Source: an uncultured bacterium
Lineage (GTDB): Bacteria > Patescibacteriota > Minisyncoccia > Minisyncoccales > RBG-13-42-11
Direction of reading: 5' to 3'
Assembly: GCA_963790795.1 (NCBI GenBank)
Contig: CAWBPO010000003.1
Span: 50,855 to 114,854, forward strand
Length of the DNA stretch: 64,000 nucleotides
In this document: piece after piece, positions 4,437 through 41,208 of the stretch
Numbering within the stretch: position 1 is the stretch's first letter
How the letters are laid out: the number at the start of each line of letters is the position of its first letter
The notes under the pieces: generated by a model
What the model saw: only the letters and a program-made list of their open reading frames with translations
Databases searched by the model: none
Told to the model about the DNA's origin: nothing
Made by a program: the position numbers and the translations under genes

Positions 4437-5903
4437 TTATACTACTTTTCTCATTTTTGTCAATATCTCTTTCAGGAGCTTATTCGCTGTTTGAGGATTG
4501 GCTTTTCCCTTTGATTTTGCCATTACTTGGCCGACTAAAAACTGAAAACCTCCTTCTTTTCCTTTTTGATAATCATCAACTACTTTTTTGTTTTCAGAAA
4601 TTACTTCTTTAATAATCTTTTCAATTTCAGATTCGTCGCTAATCTGAGTTAACCCCTCCTCTTGTATAATCTGTGAGGGGTCTTTTCCTTTTTTAATCAT
4701 TTCTTCCAAAACTATCTTTGCTCCCTTGCTTGAAATTTTATCTTTGAGAATGGAAATAATAAATTTGGCGAAATTTTCTGGCGAGGGCCTATCTGAAATA
4801 TTGTTTTTTTTCATTAACCCTTGTAAATCCGTAATCAAATAATTGGTAGCCAGATTGATCGCTTTAGGTAATTCTTGTTTTGAAACATCGGGCGAGGATG
4901 TAGTATCCCTAATAACCACCTCAGAATACTCTCCCAGACTTTTGTTGTATACGAAAATATCAACGCTTTTTTTATCCAATTGATATTCTTTGGCCAATCT
5001 CTCCCGCTTTTGCTGTGGTAATTCTGGAATTTCAGAACGAATATCCTCTATTTCTTTTTTAGTGAAATGAAGCGGCGGCAAATCAGGCTCGGGAAAATAC
5101 CGGTAATCGTGAGCTTCTTCTTTCTGCCTTTGGCTGACTGTTATCTCTTTGATATCGTCCCATCCCCTGGTTTCCTGAACAATCTTTTCTCCTTTACCTA
5201 ATAAATCAGTTTGCCTTTTAATTTCATAATCAATTGACCTTTCTACTGATCTGAAAGAATTAAGGTTTTTTATCTCCGCCTTTGTCCCTAATTTATCGTC
5301 TTTGCTCACAGAAATATTAACCTCAACCCTCATTTGTCCTTTTTCCATGTCAGCATCGGAAATATCAAGATAATGCATGATTAAATGCAGCTCTTGGGCA
5401 AACTCTCTTGCTTCTTTGGCTGAAGAAATATCAGGCTCTGTCACTAATTCCATTAAAGGAATGCCGGCCCTGTTAAAATCAACCAAAGAATACTCTGCAC
5501 CTTTGGGGTGAACTAATTTGCCAGTGTCTTCTTCTAAATGAACCTCTCGTATCCTAATTTTTATTCCATAAATTTCCAAAAATCCCTCCTTACAGAGAGG
5601 CTGATACAATTGAGAAATCTGATAACCTTTTGGTAAATCAGGGTAAAAATAATTCTTCCTGTCGAATTTAGAATGCTCGGGAACCCGACATTCTAAAGCC
5701 AAACCCGTCTTGATTGTTTTTCTCACTGCCTCCTCGTTAATAACCGGAAGACTTCCTGGTTGTGCAGTACACGTCGGACATATATTGATATTCGGACGAT
5801 GTTCGTTAGGGTCATTTTTACAACTACAAAACATTTTGGTTTTTGTATTCAACTCAACATGTATTTCAAGGCCGATTGTCGGTTTATACATAGGTTTACT
5901 CAA
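4437..5903 (-). CDS. gatB: Asp/Glu-tRNA(Asn/Gln) amidotransferase subunit B
   Basis: YKPTIGLEIHVELNTKTKMFCSC and a C-terminal GatB/YqeY domain. Confidence 0.95.
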   Translation of the reverse strand: MSKPMYKPTIGLEIHVELNTKTKMFCSCKNDPNEHRPNINICPTCTAQPGSLPVINEEAVRKTIKTGLALECRVPEHSKFDRKNYFYPDLPKGYQISQLYQPLCKEGFLEIYGIKIRIREVHLEEDTGKLVHPKGAEYSLVDFNRAGIPLMELVTEPDISSAKEAREFAQELHLIMHYLDISDADMEKGQMRVEVNISVSKDDKLGTKAEIKNLNSFRSVERSIDYEIKRQTDLLGKGEKIVQETRGWDDIKEITVSQRQKEEAHDYRYFPEPDLPPLHFTKKEIEDIRSEIPELPQQKRERLAKEYQLDKKSVDIFVYNKSLGEYSEVVIRDTTSSPDVSKQELPKAINLATNYLITDLQGLMKKNNISDRPSPENFAKFIISILKDKISSKGAKIVLEEMIKKGKDPSQIIQEEGLTQISDESEIEKIIKEVISENKKVVDDYQKGKEGGFQFLVGQVMAKSKGKANPQTANKLLKEILTKMRKVV

Positions 5904-7387: not shown

Positions 7388-8642
7388 AGATCAGAAACTT
7401 TTTAGTTATTCTTTTCACCTCGTTTTTAATCAAATTTTTAATTTTCTGGTTGTTAATATTCTTAATAAGTTTGACAATAAGACTCACAACCTCTCTTGAT
7501 TCTTTCTCTTTCAGACCCCTGGTGGTGATTGCCGGTGTTCCCAGCCTGATACCAGAAGGAAAATATGGAGGTTTTTTGTCAAAAGGAATGGCGCTCCTGT
7601 TAACGTAGATGTTCACTTTATCCAATTCGTCCTGAATTTCCTTAGATCCAACCTCAAAAGGAGAAACGTCAATCACCATTAAATGGTTATCGGTTCCTCC
7701 ACTAATCACCTTGATCCCCTGCTTTTGGAATTCATCAGCCATGGCTTTGGCATTCAAAACAATCTGTTTTTGATATCGCTTAAAAGAAGGCTTCATCGCT
7801 TCCAAAAAACAAATTGCTTTAGCAGCAATAACATGCTCCATTGGTCCTCCCTGAATACCGGGAAAAACAGCTTTATCAATTTTTTGAGCTAAATTTAACT
7901 TGCCTTTGAAATCCAGCCTGTCTTTCACTTTGCAAAGAATCAACCCTCCGCGCGGCCCTCTTAGGGTTTTATGGGTGGTTGTTGTAACAACGTCGCACCA
8001 AGGAAAGGGATGGGGATGGACTCCGGCAATAACCAAGCCGGCAATATGGGCGATATCAGCCATTAAATACGCTTTAACTTTATCGGCAATCTTTCTGAAT
8101 TTTTTAAAATCAAGAGTTCTGGAATAAGAAGTGGTGCTGACAATAATTAATTTCGGCTTGAACTTTAAAGCTATTTTTTCCACTTCTTTCAAGTCAATCT
8201 TTTCTGTTTTTGAATCAACTCCGTAATGAGAAAAATTATATAGCTTGCCGGAAAAATTAACCGGTGAGCCGTGCGTCAAATGGCCTCCGGCAGACAAATC
8301 AATGCCTAATATTTTATCTTTGTAGTTTAATAACGCCAGATAAACAGCTGAGTTTGCCTGTGAGCCAGAATGCGGCTGGACGTTGGCATGTTCAGCTTTA
8401 AACAATTTCTTAGCTCTTTCTATGGCTGTCTGCTCAATTTCATCGATGAATTTATTGCCACTGTAATACCTTTTGTATGGATAGCCTTCAGAATACTTAT
8501 TGCTTAAAGGAGTACCCATAACAGACAGCACTCGAGGGCTGGCGTAATTTTCCGAAGGAATTAAAACCAAGCCGTTTTTTTGCCTGACAATTTCTTTTTT
8601 AACTAAATTATATATTTTGGGGTCTGATTTTGAAAGTTTCAT
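7368..8642 (-). CDS. glyA: serine hydroxymethyltransferase
   Basis: LIPSENYASPRVL, VQPHSGSQAN, TTTTHKTLRGPRGG (PLP lysine). Confidence 0.95.
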   Translation of the reverse strand: MKLSKSDPKIYNLVKKEIVRQKNGLVLIPSENYASPRVLSVMGTPLSNKYSEGYPYKRYYSGNKFIDEIEQTAIERAKKLFKAEHANVQPHSGSQANSAVYLALLNYKDKILGIDLSAGGHLTHGSPVNFSGKLYNFSHYGVDSKTEKIDLKEVEKIALKFKPKLIIVSTTSYSRTLDFKKFRKIADKVKAYLMADIAHIAGLVIAGVHPHPFPWCDVVTTTTHKTLRGPRGGLILCKVKDRLDFKGKLNLAQKIDKAVFPGIQGGPMEHVIAAKAICFLEAMKPSFKRYQKQIVLNAKAMADEFQKQGIKVISGGTDNHLMVIDVSPFEVGSKEIQDELDKVNIYVNRSAIPFDKKPPYFPSGIRLGTPAITTRGLKEKESREVVSLIVKLIKNINNQKIKNLIKNEVKRITKKFLIYEDFQW

Positions 8643-17379: not shown

Positions 17380-17387
17380 GGAAATTG

Positions 17388-17728
17388 TTGCGGGGGCCGG
17401 AATTGCACCGGCGTCTCGAGGTTCTTAAAAGCTCTTTGTTTCCAAAAAGAATGGACTATCCCATCTCCCTCTAATTGTTAAAAGTAGGGAGTCCTTATTA
17501 TAGTCTCTGAACCTTTCTCTCACCACAATATATTGTGGTGAGAAACTTGGCTGCTGATTGCCGAATCATCTCTTTTTTTAGCATTCACGCTTGTCTTTAC
17601 AGAGAACGTTGTAGCAAGAGACGCTCTAACGGGTTCCCAGCAATTTAAAGGATTTTTCTGAAGATGTTTCCATTTTCAGCCACATTTTTAGATATGGGCC
17701 TCGCAAGGTACTACTCCTCCACCCCGCG
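17388..17728 (-). tRNA. initiator-type tRNA-fMet(CAT) interrupted by a group I intron (exons 17728-17694 and 17423-17388)
   Basis: Exon 1 is CGCGGGGTGGAGGAGTAGTACCTTGCGAGGCCCAT. Exon 2 is AACCTCGAGACGCCGGTGCAATTCCGGCCCCCGCAA. Joined they give a 71-nt cloverleaf with a C1:A72 mismatch and anticodon CAT. The acceptor and T-stem strings match the E. coli tRNA-fMet I remember (CGCGGGGTGGAG...TCCGGCCCCCGCAA). Confidence 0.85.
17424..17693 (-). ncRNA. group I self-splicing intron (270 nt, no ORF) in the tRNA-fMet anticodon loop after U36
   Basis: The 5' splice site follows U (CCCAU|AUCU) and the intron ends in G (UUUUAAG|AA). P1 CCAUAU/AUGUGG has U.G at the splice site. P2 and P9 carry GAAA loops. 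P3 is UCCUU/AAGGA, P4 UGCUG/CAGCA, P8 CUCCCU/AGGGAG. Core strings are UUCAGAGACUAUAAU and CAGCCAAGU. Confidence 0.8.
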
Positions 17729-17741
17729 GCAAAACATTTTA

Positions 17742-17769
17742 ATTATACTTTCTTTTTCAAAAAAATCAA
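17742..17769 (-). promoter_or_regulatory. sigma70-like promoter for the tRNA operon
   Basis: Minus strand TTGATT, 16-nt spacer, TATAAT. The -10 box ends 12 nt before tRNA-fMet position 1. Confidence 0.5.
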
Positions 17770-33968: not shown

Positions 33969-35291
33969 TTAATCAATAACCAAATTGAACTTAATTTTAT
34001 TCAAGTCCTCAGGCACTTTATTGACCCAAAAAGGCCAAAACTTAACGCTGGTCTTGATAATTCTGGGTTGGTTTTCCAAGAACAATTTGGCTTCAAGTAA
34101 AGTCCTGTCTTTCAGAGCGTTTTTAAAGGTATATACGTCAACATCGTAATAGGTTTTAGCTGAAATCTTCAAAGAGACAGTGGTTTTGCCGGTCTCAACA
34201 TCTGTAATCTCAGGGTAATAATCTATTTGCAGGCTTTCCTCGTAAAGCTTTTTATCTTGAGCAAGCTGATAACTAATCATATCTTTGGCAAAGTTTCTGA
34301 CATCCTCTTTTTTGAACAATAATGTCTGGCACTGAGCTTTTACCTGATACTTAAATTCTTGTGTCTCCTCTCCGGCAGAAGCCAAAGAAAACTTTTCAAC
34401 GATTTCTGTCTGGATATTGTCTGGAATGTAGTCAAATTTTGAAGCAGTTTCCCCTGTTTGCAATTCGCTCTTTAAAAGCTCTTCGCATTCTTTCTTGGCT
34501 TGCTTTGTTAAAGATTCTTCAGCTTGAGCTAAATCTTGTTCTGTCATTTTGGCAACTTCTTCCTGAAAGCCGCCTGTCATCGCTTCAAAAGATTCTCCGT
34601 AAAACTTAGTATACCTGTCAGTGCCGGCAAACCCTGGTATGGAAAACTTGGTCGGGCCGATATTGTATTCTTCGCCTGACTGATCTGCCACAACTTTAAT
34701 GTCTATTTCTCCCGGAACAAACTTACCTTTTTCATAAGTGCTGCCTGGAACAGTAGATTTAATAGGCGTTCTAAACAGCTTTCCGTCAGCTGAAACAAAA
34801 CGGGTAGTCGCCAATAAAACCTGAGGAGAGGTTGAGTAAGAGTTGTATACCCTTATTATACCCTCTGCTTTTTCCTCTTTTAAAACTTTGCCAGAAGCCA
34901 AAAATCCCTGAACAACGGTCTTTTCCTTCTGCAGAATCTGAGCAGGAATTATTTTCATCAAAGAATCAGCTACTGTTGCATGCTGGTCAAGACTTACTTC
35001 CTCTTCCAAACTAATAAGTTCTGTTTCCGGCCAAACCTGTATTTCAGCTTTTGACAGAGTAATGTAGCAAAAAGCTCCCAATAAAAACAAAAAAAACAAA
35101 GAAAAAATCAAACCCTTTTTAAAAGGCGGAATCGGAACTTTTTTGACAAAAGATTTGAGAGATACCCGAGATTTCTTCTCGGCTTTCACCTCTGTTCTTT
35201 TTTCTTCCTGCTCCTCCTCCTTTTCTACCTCTATCTCTTTTTTTATCTCTATCTTTGAAGGAGGAAAAATGTCTATTACTTTTTTACTCAT
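33969..35291 (-). CDS. hypothetical membrane-anchored protein (acidic/Lys-rich N-terminus, one TM helix, large extracytoplasmic domain)
   Basis: 440-aa ORF with TM helix GLIFSLFFLFLLGAFCYITL. No family recognised. Confidence 0.6.
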   Translation of the reverse strand: MSKKVIDIFPPSKIEIKKEIEVEKEEEQEEKRTEVKAEKKSRVSLKSFVKKVPIPPFKKGLIFSLFFLFLLGAFCYITLSKAEIQVWPETELISLEEEVSLDQHATVADSLMKIIPAQILQKEKTVVQGFLASGKVLKEEKAEGIIRVYNSYSTSPQVLLATTRFVSADGKLFRTPIKSTVPGSTYEKGKFVPGEIDIKVVADQSGEEYNIGPTKFSIPGFAGTDRYTKFYGESFEAMTGGFQEEVAKMTEQDLAQAEESLTKQAKKECEELLKSELQTGETASKFDYIPDNIQTEIVEKFSLASAGEETQEFKYQVKAQCQTLLFKKEDVRNFAKDMISYQLAQDKKLYEESLQIDYYPEITDVETGKTTVSLKISAKTYYDVDVYTFKNALKDRTLLEAKLFLENQPRIIKTSVKFWPFWVNKVPEDLNKIKFNLVID

Positions 35292-35438
35292 AGTGGTAAT
35301 ACCTAATTAGGTCGCGGCACGCGTCGCTTACGCTCCGCTAACACCGCTCTTTAAAAACCCTCGGTTTTTAATATTTTCCTACACGGAAGAACCGAAAGGT
35401 TCTTCCGACCCATCTCCGATATGGGATGCTATCATTTA
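35292..35438. repeat. intergenic structured repeat, copy 2 of 3
   Basis: Hairpins at 35351-35371 (TTAAAAAC CCTCG GTTTTTAA) and 35385-35406 (GGAAGAACC GAAA GGTTCTTCC). Flanks align with copies 1 and 3. Confidence 0.8.
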
Positions 35439-35455
35439 TTATATAAAATTTTGTT

Positions 35456-37102
35456 TTATTGTAAAATAGCTCTGATTCTCCTGATGCCGGCGCTGGAAGA
35501 CTCTTCTTTGACAACCTTAAAATGACCGAGCTCTCCCGTCCGACTAACGTGGGGGCCGCCGCATATCTCTTTTGAAAAATCGCCAATGCTGTAAACTTTT
35601 ACTATCTCTTCGTATTTATTTTCAAAAACTCCTGTTGCCCCTTTTTCTTTTGCTTCTTTTAAAGTCATCTCTTCACAGATTACGGGCAAATCCTCTTTGA
35701 TTTTTTGATTGACTAAGTTCTCAACTTCTTTAATCTCTTTTTCTGTCATTTTTTCCGGATGGGAAAAATCAAACCTTAATCTCTCAACCGTAATATTGCT
35801 TCCTTTCTGGAAAATATGGCTGCCTAAAACCTGCCTTAAAGCAGCTAATAATAAATGATTGACAGTATGATATTTAATTGTTTTTTCTGAAACATCGGCT
35901 AGTCCACCCTTAAACATTCCTGAAGAAGAGGTTCTTGAAAGTTCTTGGTGTTCCTTAAATTTTTTATTAAATTCTTCCACATCTATATCTTTCCCCCTTT
36001 CTTTAGCCAGCTCTAACGTTAACTCTAATGGAAAACCGTAACTCGTGTACAGTTCAAAAGCATCTGTGCCTTTTTCAAATTGTTTCAATCCCTCCTCCAG
36101 CGTTTTCTCAAACTTTTCCTCTTCATTTTGAATTGCCGTCAAAATATCACTTTCTTTTGATTTTAATTCCGGATAAACGTCTTTATGCATTTCAATCGCT
36201 TTTTGCGCCAAAGGAATCAGGAAATTCTCCGGCAAATTCAATAATCTCCCGTATCTTATCGCTCTTCTTAAAACCCTTCTCAAAACATATCCCCTTTCAA
36301 CGTTTGAGGGTAAAATTCCTTCAGAAATTAAAAAAACAGAACCTTTGACATGGTCAGCAATTATTCTTTTTGCTTTTTCATTTTCACCTGGAATCCAGTT
36401 AACAATCGGCAAAAATAAATCAGTCTCGTAAACTGAATATTTGCCCTGAACAACCGTTGCCAATCTCTCCAATCCCATGCCCGTATCAACTCCTTTCTGT
36501 TTCAAAGAAACAAGTTTGCCAGCCTTATCCTGATAATATTCGTTAAAAACTAAGTTCCAAACCTCAATACCGTTAAAATGAATTTCAGTTGTCGGACCGC
36601 AAGGCCCTTCCTCTCCAGTCGGCCCCCAGAAATTGTCCTTTCTGCCGCATTTTTTAATTTTGTTTTCTGGAATGCCAAGTTTTTTCCAGATTTCAACTGA
36701 TTCTTTGTCTTCTGAAACATTTCCATCTCCTTCAAAAACAGTAAAAACAGCCTTATCCAAAGGCAATTTCAACTCTTTAAAAAGAAACTCAAAAGCTGCG
36801 CTTATCGCTTCTTCTTTAAAGTAACCGCCGAAAGAAAAATTCCCCAGCATTTCCAAAAAAGTCAGATGGCTCTCGTCTCCCACTTCTTTAATATCAGAAG
36901 TTCTGAAGCATTTTTGGCAAGAACAGACATTTTGGCCAAAAGGAGATTTCTCGCCCAAATAATACGGTTTGAACTGCTGCATGCCAGCAGTCGTAAATAA
37001 AACGCTGGGGTCTGCGGGTATAAGGGAAGACGAAGGCAAGACTTTATGCCCTTTTTTCTCAAAAAATTCCAAAAACTTTCTTCTCAATTCGTTTGAGTTC
37101 AT
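35456..37102 (-). CDS. alaS: alanyl-tRNA synthetase, compact form (548 aa) lacking the C-Ala domain
   Basis: FTTAGMQQFKPYYLG, editing-domain HTVNHLLLAAL and CGGPHV. The protein ends soon after the editing domain. Confidence 0.85.
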   Translation of the reverse strand: MNSNELRRKFLEFFEKKGHKVLPSSSLIPADPSVLFTTAGMQQFKPYYLGEKSPFGQNVCSCQKCFRTSDIKEVGDESHLTFLEMLGNFSFGGYFKEEAISAAFEFLFKELKLPLDKAVFTVFEGDGNVSEDKESVEIWKKLGIPENKIKKCGRKDNFWGPTGEEGPCGPTTEIHFNGIEVWNLVFNEYYQDKAGKLVSLKQKGVDTGMGLERLATVVQGKYSVYETDLFLPIVNWIPGENEKAKRIIADHVKGSVFLISEGILPSNVERGYVLRRVLRRAIRYGRLLNLPENFLIPLAQKAIEMHKDVYPELKSKESDILTAIQNEEEKFEKTLEEGLKQFEKGTDAFELYTSYGFPLELTLELAKERGKDIDVEEFNKKFKEHQELSRTSSSGMFKGGLADVSEKTIKYHTVNHLLLAALRQVLGSHIFQKGSNITVERLRFDFSHPEKMTEKEIKEVENLVNQKIKEDLPVICEEMTLKEAKEKGATGVFENKYEEIVKVYSIGDFSKEICGGPHVSRTGELGHFKVVKEESSSAGIRRIRAILQ

Positions 37103-39822: not shown

Positions 39823-41086
39823 ATTCCCGCATTTGCAGTTGAGCTTTAACCTGGCGCATTGAATCCAAAGCAACGGAAACAACTATCAATAAAGCCGTAC
39901 CTCCGATTAAAAAGCTGAAAACATGAACGCCGGTAATGCCGCCGATGATTGAAGGCAAAACAGCAATAAGTCCCAAGAATAAAGCGCCGATCAGCAGCAC
40001 CCTGTTCAAGATAAAATACATGAAATTAGCTGTGTTTTCGCCCGGCCTGATACCGGGTACAAATCCGCCCATTTTCTGCAGATTGGAAGAAATGGCTTTC
40101 GGGTCAAAAGTAACTGCTGTATAGAAATAAGTGAAAAGCACGACCAGAATAAAGTAAGCAATACCGTAAAACCACTGATTGGCAAACAAGTTTCCTATGG
40201 TTTGAGCAACAGAACCTATTGTTCCTCCAGCCCCTCCCAAAAAATTAGCAATCATTCCGGGAAAAAGCATAATTGATAAAGCAAAGATAATAGGGATAAC
40301 TCCAGCAGGATTAATGTTCAAAGGCAAATAAGTGGAAACTCCTCCGTACATTTTCGTTCCCCTCACTCTTTTGGCGTAGGAAACAGGAATGTTCCGACGT
40401 CCCTCGTTAATCAAAACTACGCCAGCGATGATAACCAAAGCCATGCCAAAGAAAAACAGATAAGCAGGGACATTGGCCGGATTCCAAGCAACAATCATCT
40501 TTCTGATGTTATTGGGAACGTCGGCAATAATACCGGCAAAAATCAAAAGAGAAACGCCGTTGCCAATCCCCTTTTCTGAAATCAATTCTCCCAGCCACAT
40601 CAAAAACACGGTTCCAGTGGTAATGGTCAATATTGAAGTGATGGTCAGTTCCAAAGAAAGCTGGCCGATTATCTGCTGTCTTTGAAAAAGAGAAAGCATG
40701 GCATATCCTTGCAAAATGCCCAAAGGAATGGTTAAAATCCTTCCGTACTGATTAAATTTTTTCTTGCCTTGCTCTCCTTCTTCTTTATACATTCTTTCCA
40801 GGGCCGGAAATATCATTGTTAACAGCTGCATGATAATGACACCAGTGATATATGGACCCAAGCCAAGCATAACGATTGAAAGGTTGTCTAAAGCTCCTCC
40901 GGTAAACAAGTTCAAAAGGCCGAATATCTGATTGGCGCCGAAAAACTCCTGTATCTTTTCAGCTGAAATCCCGGGAATGGGAATATTGGCCATCAATCTG
41001 AAAACGGCAAAAACTCCCAAAACAAAAAGAATCTTATTGCGCAAGTCCTTTATCTTGAATATTTGAATAATCTTCTGGTACCACAT
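39809..41086 (-). CDS. secY: preprotein translocase subunit SecY
   Basis: 425 aa, 10-TM pattern, GGALDNLSIVMLGLGPYIT, GISLLIFAGI. Confidence 0.95.
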   Translation of the reverse strand: MWYQKIIQIFKIKDLRNKILFVLGVFAVFRLMANIPIPGISAEKIQEFFGANQIFGLLNLFTGGALDNLSIVMLGLGPYITGVIIMQLLTMIFPALERMYKEEGEQGKKKFNQYGRILTIPLGILQGYAMLSLFQRQQIIGQLSLELTITSILTITTGTVFLMWLGELISEKGIGNGVSLLIFAGIIADVPNNIRKMIVAWNPANVPAYLFFFGMALVIIAGVVLINEGRRNIPVSYAKRVRGTKMYGGVSTYLPLNINPAGVIPIIFALSIMLFPGMIANFLGGAGGTIGSVAQTIGNLFANQWFYGIAYFILVVLFTYFYTAVTFDPKAISSNLQKMGGFVPGIRPGENTANFMYFILNRVLLIGALFLGLIAVLPSIIGGITGVHVFSFLIGGTALLIVVSVALDSMRQVKAQLQMREYETF

Positions 41087-41208
41087 AGTGATAATACTAA
41101 GTTAGTCGCTCGCTTCGGGCTCGCTCTTTAAAAACCCTCAGTTTTTAATCTTTTCCTACACAGGGAAACCGGAGGGTTTCCCCGACCCCCTTCCGATATG
41201 GGATGTCA
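41087..41208. repeat. intergenic structured repeat, copy 3 of 3 (rplO-secY spacer)
   Basis: Hairpins at 41128-41148 (TTAAAAAC CCTCA GTTTTTAA) and 41163-41182 (GGGAAACC GGAG GGTTTCCC). Nearly identical to copy 1 across H2 and the 3' flank. Confidence 0.8.

Follow-up and report, generated by a model that had tools for sequence, protein, structure and literature searches.

The genomes of Patescibacteria rank among the smallest and most densely packed in bacteria, their genes lying 1-5 nt apart; that several non-coding elements of 120-210 nt are nonetheless tolerated inside their most essential operons needs explaining. The stretch of 64,000 nt studied here (the window) raises the question of what such an element is and on which strand its structure acts. 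A preliminary description of this DNA reported three copies of an unclassified structured element, all of one polarity. The three copies are real and each lies on the plus strand, at 2075-2189, 35292-35428 and 41087-41205, although the last 10 nt formerly assigned to copy 2 (to 35438) are flank and not element. The order of parts given there (box, GC-rich variable segment, hairpin H1, linker, hairpin H2, flank) is borne out. The sequence CCGACCCNNNTCCGAT occurs three times in the window compared with 0.41 expected, a count reached in none of 100 shuffles, and an nhmmer profile of the element finds exactly these three window sites, with E-values of 1e-22 to 1e-26.

Copy 2 (35292-35428) ends flush with the ATG (35289-35291, minus strand) of a gene encoding 440 amino acids (33969-35291). 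Its first segment on the plus strand, 35292-35310, is the 3' tail in the sense of that minus-strand gene, and consists of the palindromic box GGTAWTACC (plus strand AGTGGTAATACC) and TAATTAG; this tail is without structure and conserved family-wide. A variable GC-rich domain of type I follows at 35311-35350 (GTCGCGGCACG ... CTAACACCGCTC), with a GCGG/CCGC stem that is lengthened by G.U pairs on the gene-sense strand, and its 3' end overlaps a boxA-like CGCTCTTTAAAAAC on the plus strand. Next come H1 (35351-35371, TTAAAAAC-CCTCG-GTTTTTAA), the conserved linker TTTTCCTACAC (35374-35384), H2 (35385-35406; purine arm GGAAGAACC, loop GAAA, pyrimidine arm GGTTCTTCC), the turn GAC with a third strand, CCATCTCC, proposed to complete an intrastrand triplex (35407-35417), and the conserved end GATATGGGATG (35418-35428), which as the gene-sense 5' end reads CATCCCATATC. 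A strong sigma70-like promoter, TTTACA-16-TATAAT (35438-35465, minus strand, 11 of 12 matches), overlaps the end of alaS and stops 10 nt before the element. Its predicted start lies 2-3 nt before the element, and thus copy 2 would be the 5' UTR of the 440-amino-acid gene.

Copy 3 (41087-41205) occupies the whole gap from the rplO stop (41206-41208) to the secY ATG (41084-41086), with the box at 41087-41097, H1 at 41128-41148, the linker at 41151-41161, H2 at 41162-41183 and GAC plus third strand at 41184-41194; a promoter and terminator scan predicts none in this junction. Copy 1 is reversed relative to its flanking plus-strand genes and has a degenerate left end, with a conserved extent of about 2075-2189. 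Its degenerate box (TGGTATTACCAT, 2075-2086) overlaps the TAA stop at 2072-2074, and is followed by H1 (2097-2117), an optional hairpin (2119-2139), the linker (2143-2153), H2 (2154-2175) and GAC plus third strand (2176-2186). By arrangement alone, locus L006 looks like the site of copy 1, with a reversed element after the stop of an ORF of similar length. The C(UUCG)G tetraloop of copy 1 sits in its optional extra hairpin, and the argument drawn from tetraloops for a plus-strand RNA fails, given that H2 loops are GNAN and not GNRA.

Compensatory changes in H1 and H2 had been noted among the three copies; they are real, and across the family they are far broader than three copies reveal. H1 occurs as TTAAAAAC/GTTTTTAA, TTAGAAAC/GTTTCTAA, CCAGAAAC/GTTTCTGG, CTAAAAAC/GTTTTTAG and ATAGAAAC/GTTTCTAT. 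Among 33 distinct versions of H2, 99.6% of cells pair, a figure that is partly circular given that copies were chosen for at least seven pairs, and changes on both sides, which are free of this circularity, occur at seven of the eight pairs. None of 500 shuffles reaches the observed percentage paired, the count of both-side changes or the covariation score; the copies are mutually related, so that such shuffle statistics overstate independence, and every copy set was picked by a pattern that fixed part of the sequence. About half of the family members have the optional hairpin, in which the sequences are unrelated and a hairpin is formed every time, and some have optional helices and three-way-junction expansions inside H2. 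The covariation of H1 and H2 supports the earlier view of selection on structure over plain recent duplication, and we show that the element is under selection for a defined single-strand fold made up of variable GC hairpins, H1, the optional hairpin, H2 and a third strand that mirrors H2. Long-range pairing of the linker CCUAYA with the flank URUGGG was rejected, the Y/R positions being without covariation, and no pairing between the two element ends was found in the Nealsonbacteria-type copies.

The 3' flank had been described as a separate box, but it covaries with H2. H2 is followed by a pyrimidine tract (CCGACCCmyyTCC) that complements the H2 purine arm in parallel orientation and mirrors the H2 pyrimidine arm. 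There are 161 parallel-complement matches out of 200, compared with 113 ± 5.6 after permutation (reached in 0 of 20,000 permutations), and 93.9% of cells obey the triplex rules, compared with 78.4% when shuffled (0 of 500 shuffles) and at most 74% when slid. An intrastrand triplex repeat consists of a purine block, its Watson-Crick pyrimidine partner and a Hoogsteen or reverse-Hoogsteen third block, with stems of at least 6 and loops of 1-6 nt (PMC4666352); the element, with 6-9 triples, a 4-nt loop and the 3-nt GAC turn, falls within this sequence definition. Judged from sequence, H2 and the third strand carry the signature of an intrastrand triple helix. An exception at triple position 3, found in three sequence classes, is compatible with the purine motif only (motif rules from PMC4666352), and an A opposite A-U at this triple position is forbidden in the pyrimidine motif. 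We infer that the triplex on the gene-sense strand would be of the purine type (G.G-C, A.A-T, T.A-T), which would be stable at neutral pH. A purine-motif triplex cannot form in RNA, and the plus strand, with its pyrimidine motif (class III), is the sole strand able to form the triplex as RNA, if any (PMC4666352).

The window copies are part of a large, uncatalogued family from ultra-small Patescibacteria, and the hosts are of the Parcubacteria/Nealsonbacteria type. Pattern scans of genomes gave 53 matches, spread over the window and 49 genome loci and raised to 55 by profile search, and the copies in genomes belong to Nealsonbacteria/Parcubacteria; the scan of metagenomes gave at least 124 matches in at least 120 loci. 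The preliminary description had matched the element to no Rfam family, and indeed a scan of the window at gathering thresholds returned only a group I intron and tRNAs. Rfam 15 E-value scans of copy 2 and one distant relative gave chance-level scores (best 18 bits, gathering threshold 49), and no known ribozyme or leader family was matched in the Rfam scans. A phage origin found no support among viral contigs, phage records and plasmid collections, which were searched without a match, and the element was not found in the literature searched. The search for a partner protein beside the copies gave neither a transposase nor a recombinase nor any other candidate, and no neighbour protein is recurrent within ±3 kb of 39 distant copies, near which rpsI recurs solely as an insertion target. 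A tmRNA, a tRNA intron or another known RNA was considered for the T-arm-like flanks of distant relatives and rejected, with ARAGORN and Rfam finding only ordinary adjacent tRNAs.

The "5' box" of the preliminary description does adjoin a gene boundary, but it is the gene-sense 3' end of the element, at an opposite-strand start codon. In about 40 of the 55 copies, the box abuts the opposite-strand ATG of a housekeeping gene, or tRNA position +1; in four tRNA cases, +1 occupies the place of the A in ATG. The unstructured tail ...GGUAUUACCACU leads directly into the AUG. Downstream genes include rplN, rplP, rpsM, secY, nusG and ftsA; they are highly expressed housekeeping genes, many at classical sub-operon starts (rplN, rpsM, mraZ, nusG, secY), and the box decays in gene-reversed copies (copy 1, L006, L061 and L104). 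From this abutment to ATG codons and tRNA 5' ends on the opposite strand it follows that, at copies 2 and 3, transcripts of operons or 5' UTRs certainly include the minus strand. The formerly proposed functional plus-strand RNA, antisense to the operons, is unsupported, with orientation tied to the opposite-strand flanking gene. Copy 1 is reversed relative to its genes, yet its polarity is the same as that of copies 2 and 3, and GC skew suggests that there is no replication switch near it. Gene orientation and replication orientation are confounded, save in the few reversed copies.

Such positions would be expected of a gene-sense, cis-acting RNA that punctuates operons from the 5' UTR or between cistrons, with hairpins that stabilize the mRNA upstream or downstream or direct endonucleolytic processing and a tail that presents the AUG or the tRNA 5' end at or near the new 5' end. 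We consider this possible but doubtful. The organism is without Shine-Dalgarno use and has many leaderless-type genes: genes in the window lack Shine-Dalgarno motifs, and in several of them the ATG is preceded at 6-9 nt by a -10 box. Together with the abutment, the nature of the downstream genes and the decay of the box, this agrees with an RNA function, as do the RNA-like helix expansions, the G.U and tandem G.A pairs of the type I domain on the gene-sense strand, and a folding energy lower on that strand in 25 of 34 copies, by a slight margin. However, the strongest covariation would then be left unexplained, given that RNA cannot adopt the purine-motif triplex, junction occupancy varies among close relatives, and no known ribozyme or leader family was matched. 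Counts of G.U versus A.C pairs were rejected as a means of assigning the strand, H2 and the optional hairpin contradicting each other: H2 wobble positions favour the gene-sense strand 7 to 1, and the common form of the optional hairpin has a conserved U.G pair on the plus strand that becomes A.C on the gene-sense strand.

Several more specific roles were rejected. The box would be a poor sigma70 -10 for leaderless mRNAs, for which we required a TAnnnT hexamer with its end 6-9 nt ahead of the transcript start, as at the leaderless-type genes of this genome: its hexamer TA(T/A)TAC ends in C only 4 nt before the ATG, and variable hairpins intervene, so that no -35 sits at a constant distance. Genuine promoters of this genome are canonical, such as the TATAAT ahead of tRNA-fMet. 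A likeness of the tail to T7/SP6-type promoters (TAATAC...CACTAT) has the wrong spacing and no TATA at -4 to -1, and was judged a coincidence. For boxA/Nus antitermination, CGCTCTTTAAAAAC is antisense to the flanking genes, and in L026 antisense to the rRNA operon that hosts the element. A riboswitch or cis-regulatory leader is at odds with downstream genes that are diverse housekeeping genes and tRNAs, and with orthologous junctions that are empty in relatives. The tail read as a tRNA-like ACCA 3' end has no matching tRNA in any locus (at best 3 mismatches in 10), and a small coupling ORF as in MIRU is contradicted by stops in every frame of copies 2 and 3.

Quite unlikely, in our judgement, is a discrete plus-strand small RNA, in which H2 and the pyrimidine tract would form a C+.G-C / U.A-U triplex, for example for 3'-end protection, and the boxA-like motif would serve as a NusB/NusE site (CGCUCUUUAAAAAC). 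This motif, which we take to resemble the E. coli rrn boxA, is conserved on the plus strand, the only one on which the triplex could form as RNA and the one on which the common optional hairpin has its U.G pair. A bidirectional intrinsic terminator follows the element in distant relatives, in plus-strand orientation, and TTGACT-17-TACTAT points this way in the variant of one genome, but no conserved plus-strand promoter or terminator was found in the Nealsonbacteria-type copies. Such an RNA would read antisense into the 3' ends of essential genes at many loci, and its triplex would need three to five consecutive C+.G-C triples, which are unfavourable at neutral pH, and an A opposite A-U at position 3 that the pyrimidine motif disallows. 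The H2 wobbles favour the other strand, and it is the start codon of that strand which orientation follows.

As has been proposed for the E. coli boxC/PIT repeats, the element might instead act as double-stranded DNA, with a cruciform and an H-DNA mirror repeat serving as a supercoil-sensitive insulator, a pause site for replication or transcription, or a recombination hotspot. The pyrimidine arm, GAC and pyrimidine tract do form a homopyrimidine mirror repeat, wobble-type mismatches are found on both strands, and comparable triplex repeats of E. coli, which lie between genes, have a link to genome rearrangement (PMC4666352). We nevertheless regard this role as very improbable: a mirror repeat suffices for H-DNA, which leaves the conserved same-strand purine arm, H1, the variable hairpins and the long conserved unpaired segments unexplained, strict orientation and start-codon abutment would be unexpected, and synteny around the copies is conserved.

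Occupancy of the junctions differs from one related genome to another. The rpsQ-rplN junction is empty in the window (TAAgaaatATG) and occupied in L023, and the rplO-secY junction is empty in L024 (TAAtATG) and filled by copy 3 in the window. Since junction occupancy varies among close relatives, the element is not something on which any gene depends. In 18 of 37 cases, compared with 2.2 expected, the copy nearest in sequence to a given one comes from its own genome, orthologous-site copies share 63-77% identity in five of six scored pairs and 91% in the sixth, and there are genome-specific derived variants, such as an insert common to the JAZDIT copies. We show that element DNA is gained, lost and homogenized within genomes. 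No record matched the SecY of the window exactly, as was sought for strain-level empty sites.

Our preferred explanation, held tentatively and with somewhat less than even confidence, is that the element is a non-autonomous, structure-constrained, non-coding modular interspersed repeat that is co-transcribed with operons. It fills gaps between co-directional genes in one preferred orientation in this lineage, and is therefore transcribed with the operon on the gene strand (minus at copies 2 and 3). In this scenario, the fold would act mainly on single-stranded DNA while the element spreads, with the gene-sense strand as the lagging-strand template on which the purine-type triplex would form. 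Elements may survive only at sites and in orientations harmless to expression, and the conserved tail would have been turned into the region from which translation of the downstream gene starts; mRNA stability or processing is likely to be affected as well, but secondarily. Against this mobile repeat stand the lack of a transposase, recombinase or partner protein next to the copies, the optional helices and H2 three-way-junction expansions, which resemble the evolution of functional RNA, and the exact abutment to ATG and tRNA +1, which single-stranded DNA mobility leaves unexplained; the triplex is also read from covariation alone. Nealsonbacteria-type copies are, moreover, without the terminal inverted repeats of a MITE (the ends CATCCCAYATCGG ... 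GGTATTACCACT are not inverted) and without target duplication at occupied versus empty sites, and their longest flanking direct repeats, at most 11 nt, are at chance level. In favour of mobility, the distant relatives are flanked by perfect direct repeats of 14-73 nt from tRNA, rpsI or rnhA gene ends, and some lie in tandem arrays.

A bolder proposal, which we consider unlikely, is that the family is a new structured nucleic-acid class with a naturally selected intrastrand triplex as its core, punctuating the operons of Patescibacteria that lack Shine-Dalgarno sequences either as a self-contained RNA-processing or ribozyme-like module or as a folded single-stranded DNA mobile element. If the former, leaderless mRNA and tRNA 5' ends would be made exactly at the 3' boundary of the element; if the latter, single-stranded DNA copying would be targeted to gene termini by an insertion mechanism undescribed for known transposons, and would leave scars of the form [target][core][inverted target][hairpin][target] in the distant relatives. 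The family comprises hundreds of natural copies with three-way triplex covariation, a kind of support that is very rare for any natural nucleic acid, and it offers a test case for intrastrand triplexes acting in DNA or RNA and a candidate handle on gene expression in lineages without Shine-Dalgarno pairing. Its covariance model could improve the annotation of CPR genomes and flag assembly breakpoints.

Pneumococcal BOX, enterobacterial ERIC and REP-BIME, neisserial Correia and mycobacterial MIRU elements are non-autonomous, hairpin-forming, dispersed intergenic repeats that are co-transcribed with their neighbours and can alter mRNA stability or processing. Our element is modular with optional internal units like BOX, and operon-oriented with a stop-to-start span like MIRU. 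Unlike Correia elements and MITEs, it has no terminal inverted repeats or TA duplication; unlike REP, it has no GTAG-tagged hairpin, and no RAYT recurs within ±3 kb of 39 distant copies; and unlike MIRU, it is not a tandem VNTR and has no coupling mini-ORF. It differs from all of these repeats in its triplex module and in its phylum. In the E. coli tyrT operon, the tRNA 3' end is duplicated at the close of 178-bp repeats. Similarly, L157, L163, L062, L058 and L136 among the distant relatives come directly after a tRNA gene and end with a second copy of the 3' end of that tRNA, and the match to this RtT family (RF00391) is sub-threshold, at 17.3 bits versus a gathering threshold of 45. Unlike in RtT, the core of the distant relatives also duplicates rpsI and rnhA ends, and the window copies are without such duplication.

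As in IS200/IS605 ends, PATE/REP derivatives and integron attC sites, the structure of one strand is conserved and not the duplex sequence, and there is no coding capacity and a uniform polarity consistent with the lagging-strand template. However, the element has a far more complex fold than these, and its ends are without a conserved target or cleavage motif of 4-5 nt. Among the proteins encoded within ±3 kb of 39 distant copies, neither a Y1 transposase nor TnpB nor an integrase recurs, and no conserved tetra- or pentanucleotide flank motif of the REP/BIME or PATE type was found beside a hairpin. The E. coli boxC/PIT/TM_ECO repeats (Hoyne & Maher 2000; Holder et al. 2015, PMC4666352) are also short, non-coding, intergenic and present in many copies without an associated transposase, with consecutive Hoogsteen, purine and pyrimidine blocks on one strand, and with a G/C-rich purine motif on one strand and a pyrimidine motif on its complement. 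TM_ECO comprises nothing more than a triplex motif of 37 nt and favours no particular strand of, or distance from, a gene, whereas the element described here, which shares no sequence similarity with it, has a preferred orientation and an end flush with start codons. Its triplex is one module of a multi-hairpin unit of 120-210 nt with long conserved unpaired segments, and is arranged as class I/III compared with class II/III in TM_ECO.

The intergenic element belongs to a real, large and uncatalogued family. All three copies proposed in the preliminary description are present in the window on the plus strand: copy 1 at about 2075-2189, without the left part and with an extra hairpin at 2119-2139; copy 2, the feature under study, with conserved sequence over 35292-35428; and copy 3 at 41087-41205, which occupies the entire gap between two genes. 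The C(UUCG)G tetraloop reported for copy 1 exists, and sits in that copy's extra hairpin. The flank pattern CCGACCCNNNTCCGAT occurs three times in the window versus 0.41 expected (0 of 100 shuffles reach three), and a profile of family members matches exactly these three sites (E-values 1e-22 to 1e-26). An exact-pattern scan of species-representative genomes, with linker and flank fixed and the two conserved hairpins, H1 and H2, left free, found 49 loci in Nealsonbacteria/Parcubacteria-type MAGs (53 matches including the three window copies); five of the matches come from CP179888.1, a closed genome of 640 kb. Searching the same DNA with a profile brought in two more copies. When only H1 was forced, metagenomes yielded at least 120 loci and at least 124 matches. 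Viral contigs, phage records and plasmids gave no match. Rfam 15 returned nothing at gathering or E-value thresholds, and a literature search found no description of the family.

Along the plus strand, as first written, the order of parts begins at CAT (the neighbouring gene's start codon, read from the opposite strand), followed by the box AGTGGTAATAC with its palindrome GGTAWTACC and then nAGTTAG. Next come GTCGC and a variable GC-rich domain of two types, with 0-3 hairpin modules that recur across different copies; CGCTCTTTA; H1; an optional hairpin, unrelated in sequence between copies and always flanked by CG...CTG; the linker TTTTCCTAYAC; H2; GAC with a pyrimidine tract; and CGATRTGGGATG. 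Among the matches listed, metagenome copies also have three-way-junction expansions within the H2 loop and a hairpin inserted after H2. Two expansions of ~45 nt recur, both with compensatory changes of their own: an insert of two hairpins within the loop of H2 (GGCGAAGAAGACTATCGCTTCTTC...TTGCCACTCGGCAA; L050, L054, L068, L077, L113, L137, L146, L151 and L165) and a hairpin between H2 and the tract (AGGTCGGGAGTTTCCGCTTCGCGGAGAACTCTCGCGACC; L083, L101, L133 and L167). All family members carry the plus-strand motif CGCTCTTTA(A/G)AAAC or CGCTCCTTAACAAC (window 35345-35358 and 41122-41135), which is antisense to the flanking genes and closely resembles the rrn/lambda boxA, UGCUCUUUAACAA.

The compensatory changes noted in H1 and H2 are abundant across the family. 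We used an ungapped alignment (A2) of 33 distinct strings, each made by removing the loop and joining the two 8-nt arms (5' then 3'), the GAC turn and the 8 nt that follow it. H2 pairing was 99.6%, a value that is partly circular because at least 7 pairs were required for selection; free of this circularity are the both-side changes, seen in 7 of 8 pairs (63 cells). None of 500 shuffles matched the observed covariation score, percentage of cells paired or number of double-change cells; controls made by sliding were at most 80% paired.

Missed in the preliminary description is a relation between the purine 5' arm of H2 and the tract that follows GAC: read in parallel, the tract complements the arm, with C for G and T for A. 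Arms GGGAGA, GGGGAA, GGGAGGA, GGGGGAGA, GGGAGAGA and GGGGAAAA go with tracts CCCTCT, CCCCTT, CCCTCCT, CCCCCTCT, CCCTCTCT and CCCCTTTT, respectively. Over positions 3-7 of 40 distinct pairs, 161 of 200 positions match versus 113 +/- 5.6 under permutation (0 of 20000 reach the observed value). An antiparallel Watson-Crick reading fitted these arm/tract pairs much more poorly than the parallel one. In the pair-counting tool, with parallel pairs written in four bracket types, positions 3-6 are 93.9% complementary versus 78.4% when shuffled (0 of 500), and a shift of 1-3 columns leaves at most 74%; position 7 has no constraint in the common types. Both two-way and three-way covariation are strong.

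The 5' box does abut a gene boundary, which proves to be the start codon of the opposite-strand gene. Of 55 copies, 39 have an ORF of 60 aa or more that starts with ATG directly beside the box or within a few nt of it, and several further copies have CAT plus box at the locus edge or ahead of a short ORF. In four copies, representing two independent sites, a tRNA gene adjoins the box, and its predicted +1 takes the position of the A of ATG (for instance GTATTACCACCT|GGG). The downstream genes are housekeeping genes, including L14, L16, S7, S13, NusG, MraZ and SecY (Pfam-confirmed) and, from translations read, S17, S18, S20, L20, L32, GroEL, FtsA, FtsX, MreB, NusA, HolA, GlmS and RnpA. On the side away from the box, most copies have a co-directional gene whose stop codon lies 0-45 nt before the element.

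Copy 2 separates alaS from a gene for a hypothetical protein of 440 aa, and upstream of it is a minus-strand promoter, TTTACA-16-TATAAT (11 of 12 matches), with 10 nt from the end of its -10 box to the element. Copy 3 occupies the rplO-secY gap, within one operon, since spc operon organisation is conserved and no promoter or terminator signals are predicted there. From these contexts the minus strand is certainly transcribed, as a 5' UTR at copy 2 and an intercistronic spacer at copy 3, which goes against the original idea of a functional plus-strand RNA. A reversed minority with a degenerate box (copy 1, L006, L061 after secY, and L104) follows a stop codon on the plus strand; L006 and copy 1 look like the same site. 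Both gene-strand transcription and an element end flush with gene starts are established.

Several neighbouring features are worth recording. The window alaS (35456-37102) encodes an alanyl-tRNA synthetase of just 548 aa, with the catalytic core and second additional domain and without the long C-terminal extension. Downstream of the L018 element, a 735-aa NusA homologue appears to carry a mid-protein intein-like insertion (...CFPGRTLILMEDFS...VAAHNC...). In L026, from a related genome, an intrinsic-terminator-like hairpin (AAAAAAGCCGTTAATTGACAGGCTTTTTATTTTTT; 4470-4530) separates the 16S rRNA gene from the element/tRNA-Ile-tRNA-Ala-23S part, and therefore the rRNA operon may be split; the 16S 3' tail (4640-4700) is GGAUCACUACAUUU (GGATCACTACATTT), not ...CACCTCCTT. 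No Shine-Dalgarno motif precedes any window gene start (e.g., 63949, 62758, 54929, 37646), and the sequence upstream is rich in A/T. In several first genes a TAnnnT (-10) hexamer stands 6-9 nt ahead of ATG, the arrangement of leaderless or near-leaderless mRNAs. At 17380-17751 on the minus strand, a group I intron (17432-17703; Rfam, 89.5 bits) splits what reads as an initiator-type tRNA-Met (CAU), with exons GCCGCGGGGTGGAG...CCCATA (5') and ...CCGGTGCAATTCCGGCCCCCGCAACA (3'), a canonical TATAAT upstream and tRNA-Met and tRNA-Asp directly downstream; ARAGORN made no call for the split tRNA.

The element turns over within genomes. At rpsQ-rplN the window reads TAAgaaatATG, where L023 has a full element; at rplO-secY, L024 reads TAAtATG and L023 has a different palindromic insert. 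That insert (7754-7851) spans ~100 nt and contains long inverted repeats (GTTAGATTGTTAGAATGT ... ACAATCTAACATTCTAAC), so this junction also hosts palindromic intergenic inserts of a second kind. For 18 of 37 copies the nearest neighbour is another locus of the same genome (2.2 expected), and orthologous-site copies from different genomes are 63-77% identical in five of six scored pairs and 91% in the sixth. Five JAZDIT01 copies (L027, L031, L036, L037 and L046) share a 34-nt insert, TATTTTGACTGTAAGGAAGAATATATATACTATA, between H1 and linker, accompanied by an altered H2 loop; it contains a near-perfect promoter, TTGACT-17-TACTAT, directed along the plus strand into H2. L006, the sixth JAZDIT01 copy, has an ordinary optional hairpin without the insert.

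Distant relatives have the same core with other ends, and perfect 14-73 nt direct repeats of local sequence on both sides. The duplicated pieces are 3' ends of tRNA-Ser, tRNA-His, tRNA-Gly and rpsI and the 5' end of rnhA; L136 has a shorter 9-nt repeat beside tRNA-Val. A partial copy in inverted orientation base-pairs with the repeat on the left, closing the core; the order is target, core, inverted target, hairpin, target. A bidirectional terminator often adjoins the core, and tandem arrays sometimes occur. Tandem units or perfect 18-73 nt flank duplications were seen in L071 (two units), L105, L057, L142, L092 and L109; in L092 the first ~20 rnhA codons are duplicated, leaving the element joined to a truncated pseudo-start, with intact rnhA behind TATAAT. 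No protein family recurs near distant copies except the target gene itself. The window-like Nealsonbacteria-type copies have fixed ends, and inverted termini and duplication are absent.

The shared polarity of the window copies stands, despite a gene flip at about 4.3 kb, where GC skew falls to 0 without reversing; together these weakly suggest that polarity tracks replication and that the purine-motif strand is on the lagging-strand template. We tentatively read the element, at somewhat less than an even chance, as a non-autonomous interspersed repeat. Its fold would be selected on single-stranded DNA and serve its spread, operons would tolerate it mainly in one orientation, and its tail would now serve, by co-option, as the initiation region for the gene downstream.

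Evidence on the strand is divided. The gene-sense strand, the transcribed one, has the lower folding energy in 25 of 34 copies (the mean difference being 2 kcal/mol); it is also favoured 7 to 1 by the wobble positions of H2, by G.U and tandem G.A pairs of the type I domain, and by the position-3 triple. A punctuation or leader element in gene-sense RNA is nevertheless unlikely in our estimation; purine-motif triplexes are impossible in RNA and pyrimidine-type ones possible (PMC4666352). The plus strand is favoured by a conserved U.G in the commonest optional hairpin, the boxA-like motif, terminators after distant relatives and the triplex, possible as RNA for this strand only. We nonetheless regard a plus-strand sRNA with a pyrimidine-motif triplex as improbable: in three different sequence classes, including copy 2 (GGAAGA/CCATCT), the position-3 A-T pair goes with plus-strand A (minus-strand T), a combination legal in the purine motif only. 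A structural element of double-stranded DNA seems slightly less probable again.

The element can be set beside known intrastrand triplexes. When the strand of the purine arm also carries a pyrimidine arm, a short turn and the mirror image of that pyrimidine arm, it would by definition make an intrastrand triple helix. By the scheme of Hoyne & Maher and Holder et al. (PMC4666352), the element's plus strand would be class III (pyrimidine motif; C+.G-C, T.A-T) and its minus strand class I (purine motif; G.G-C, A.A-T, T.A-T). Purine-motif stability is driven by G.G-C triples (PMC4666352), and G-C based triples make up two-thirds of those in the element.
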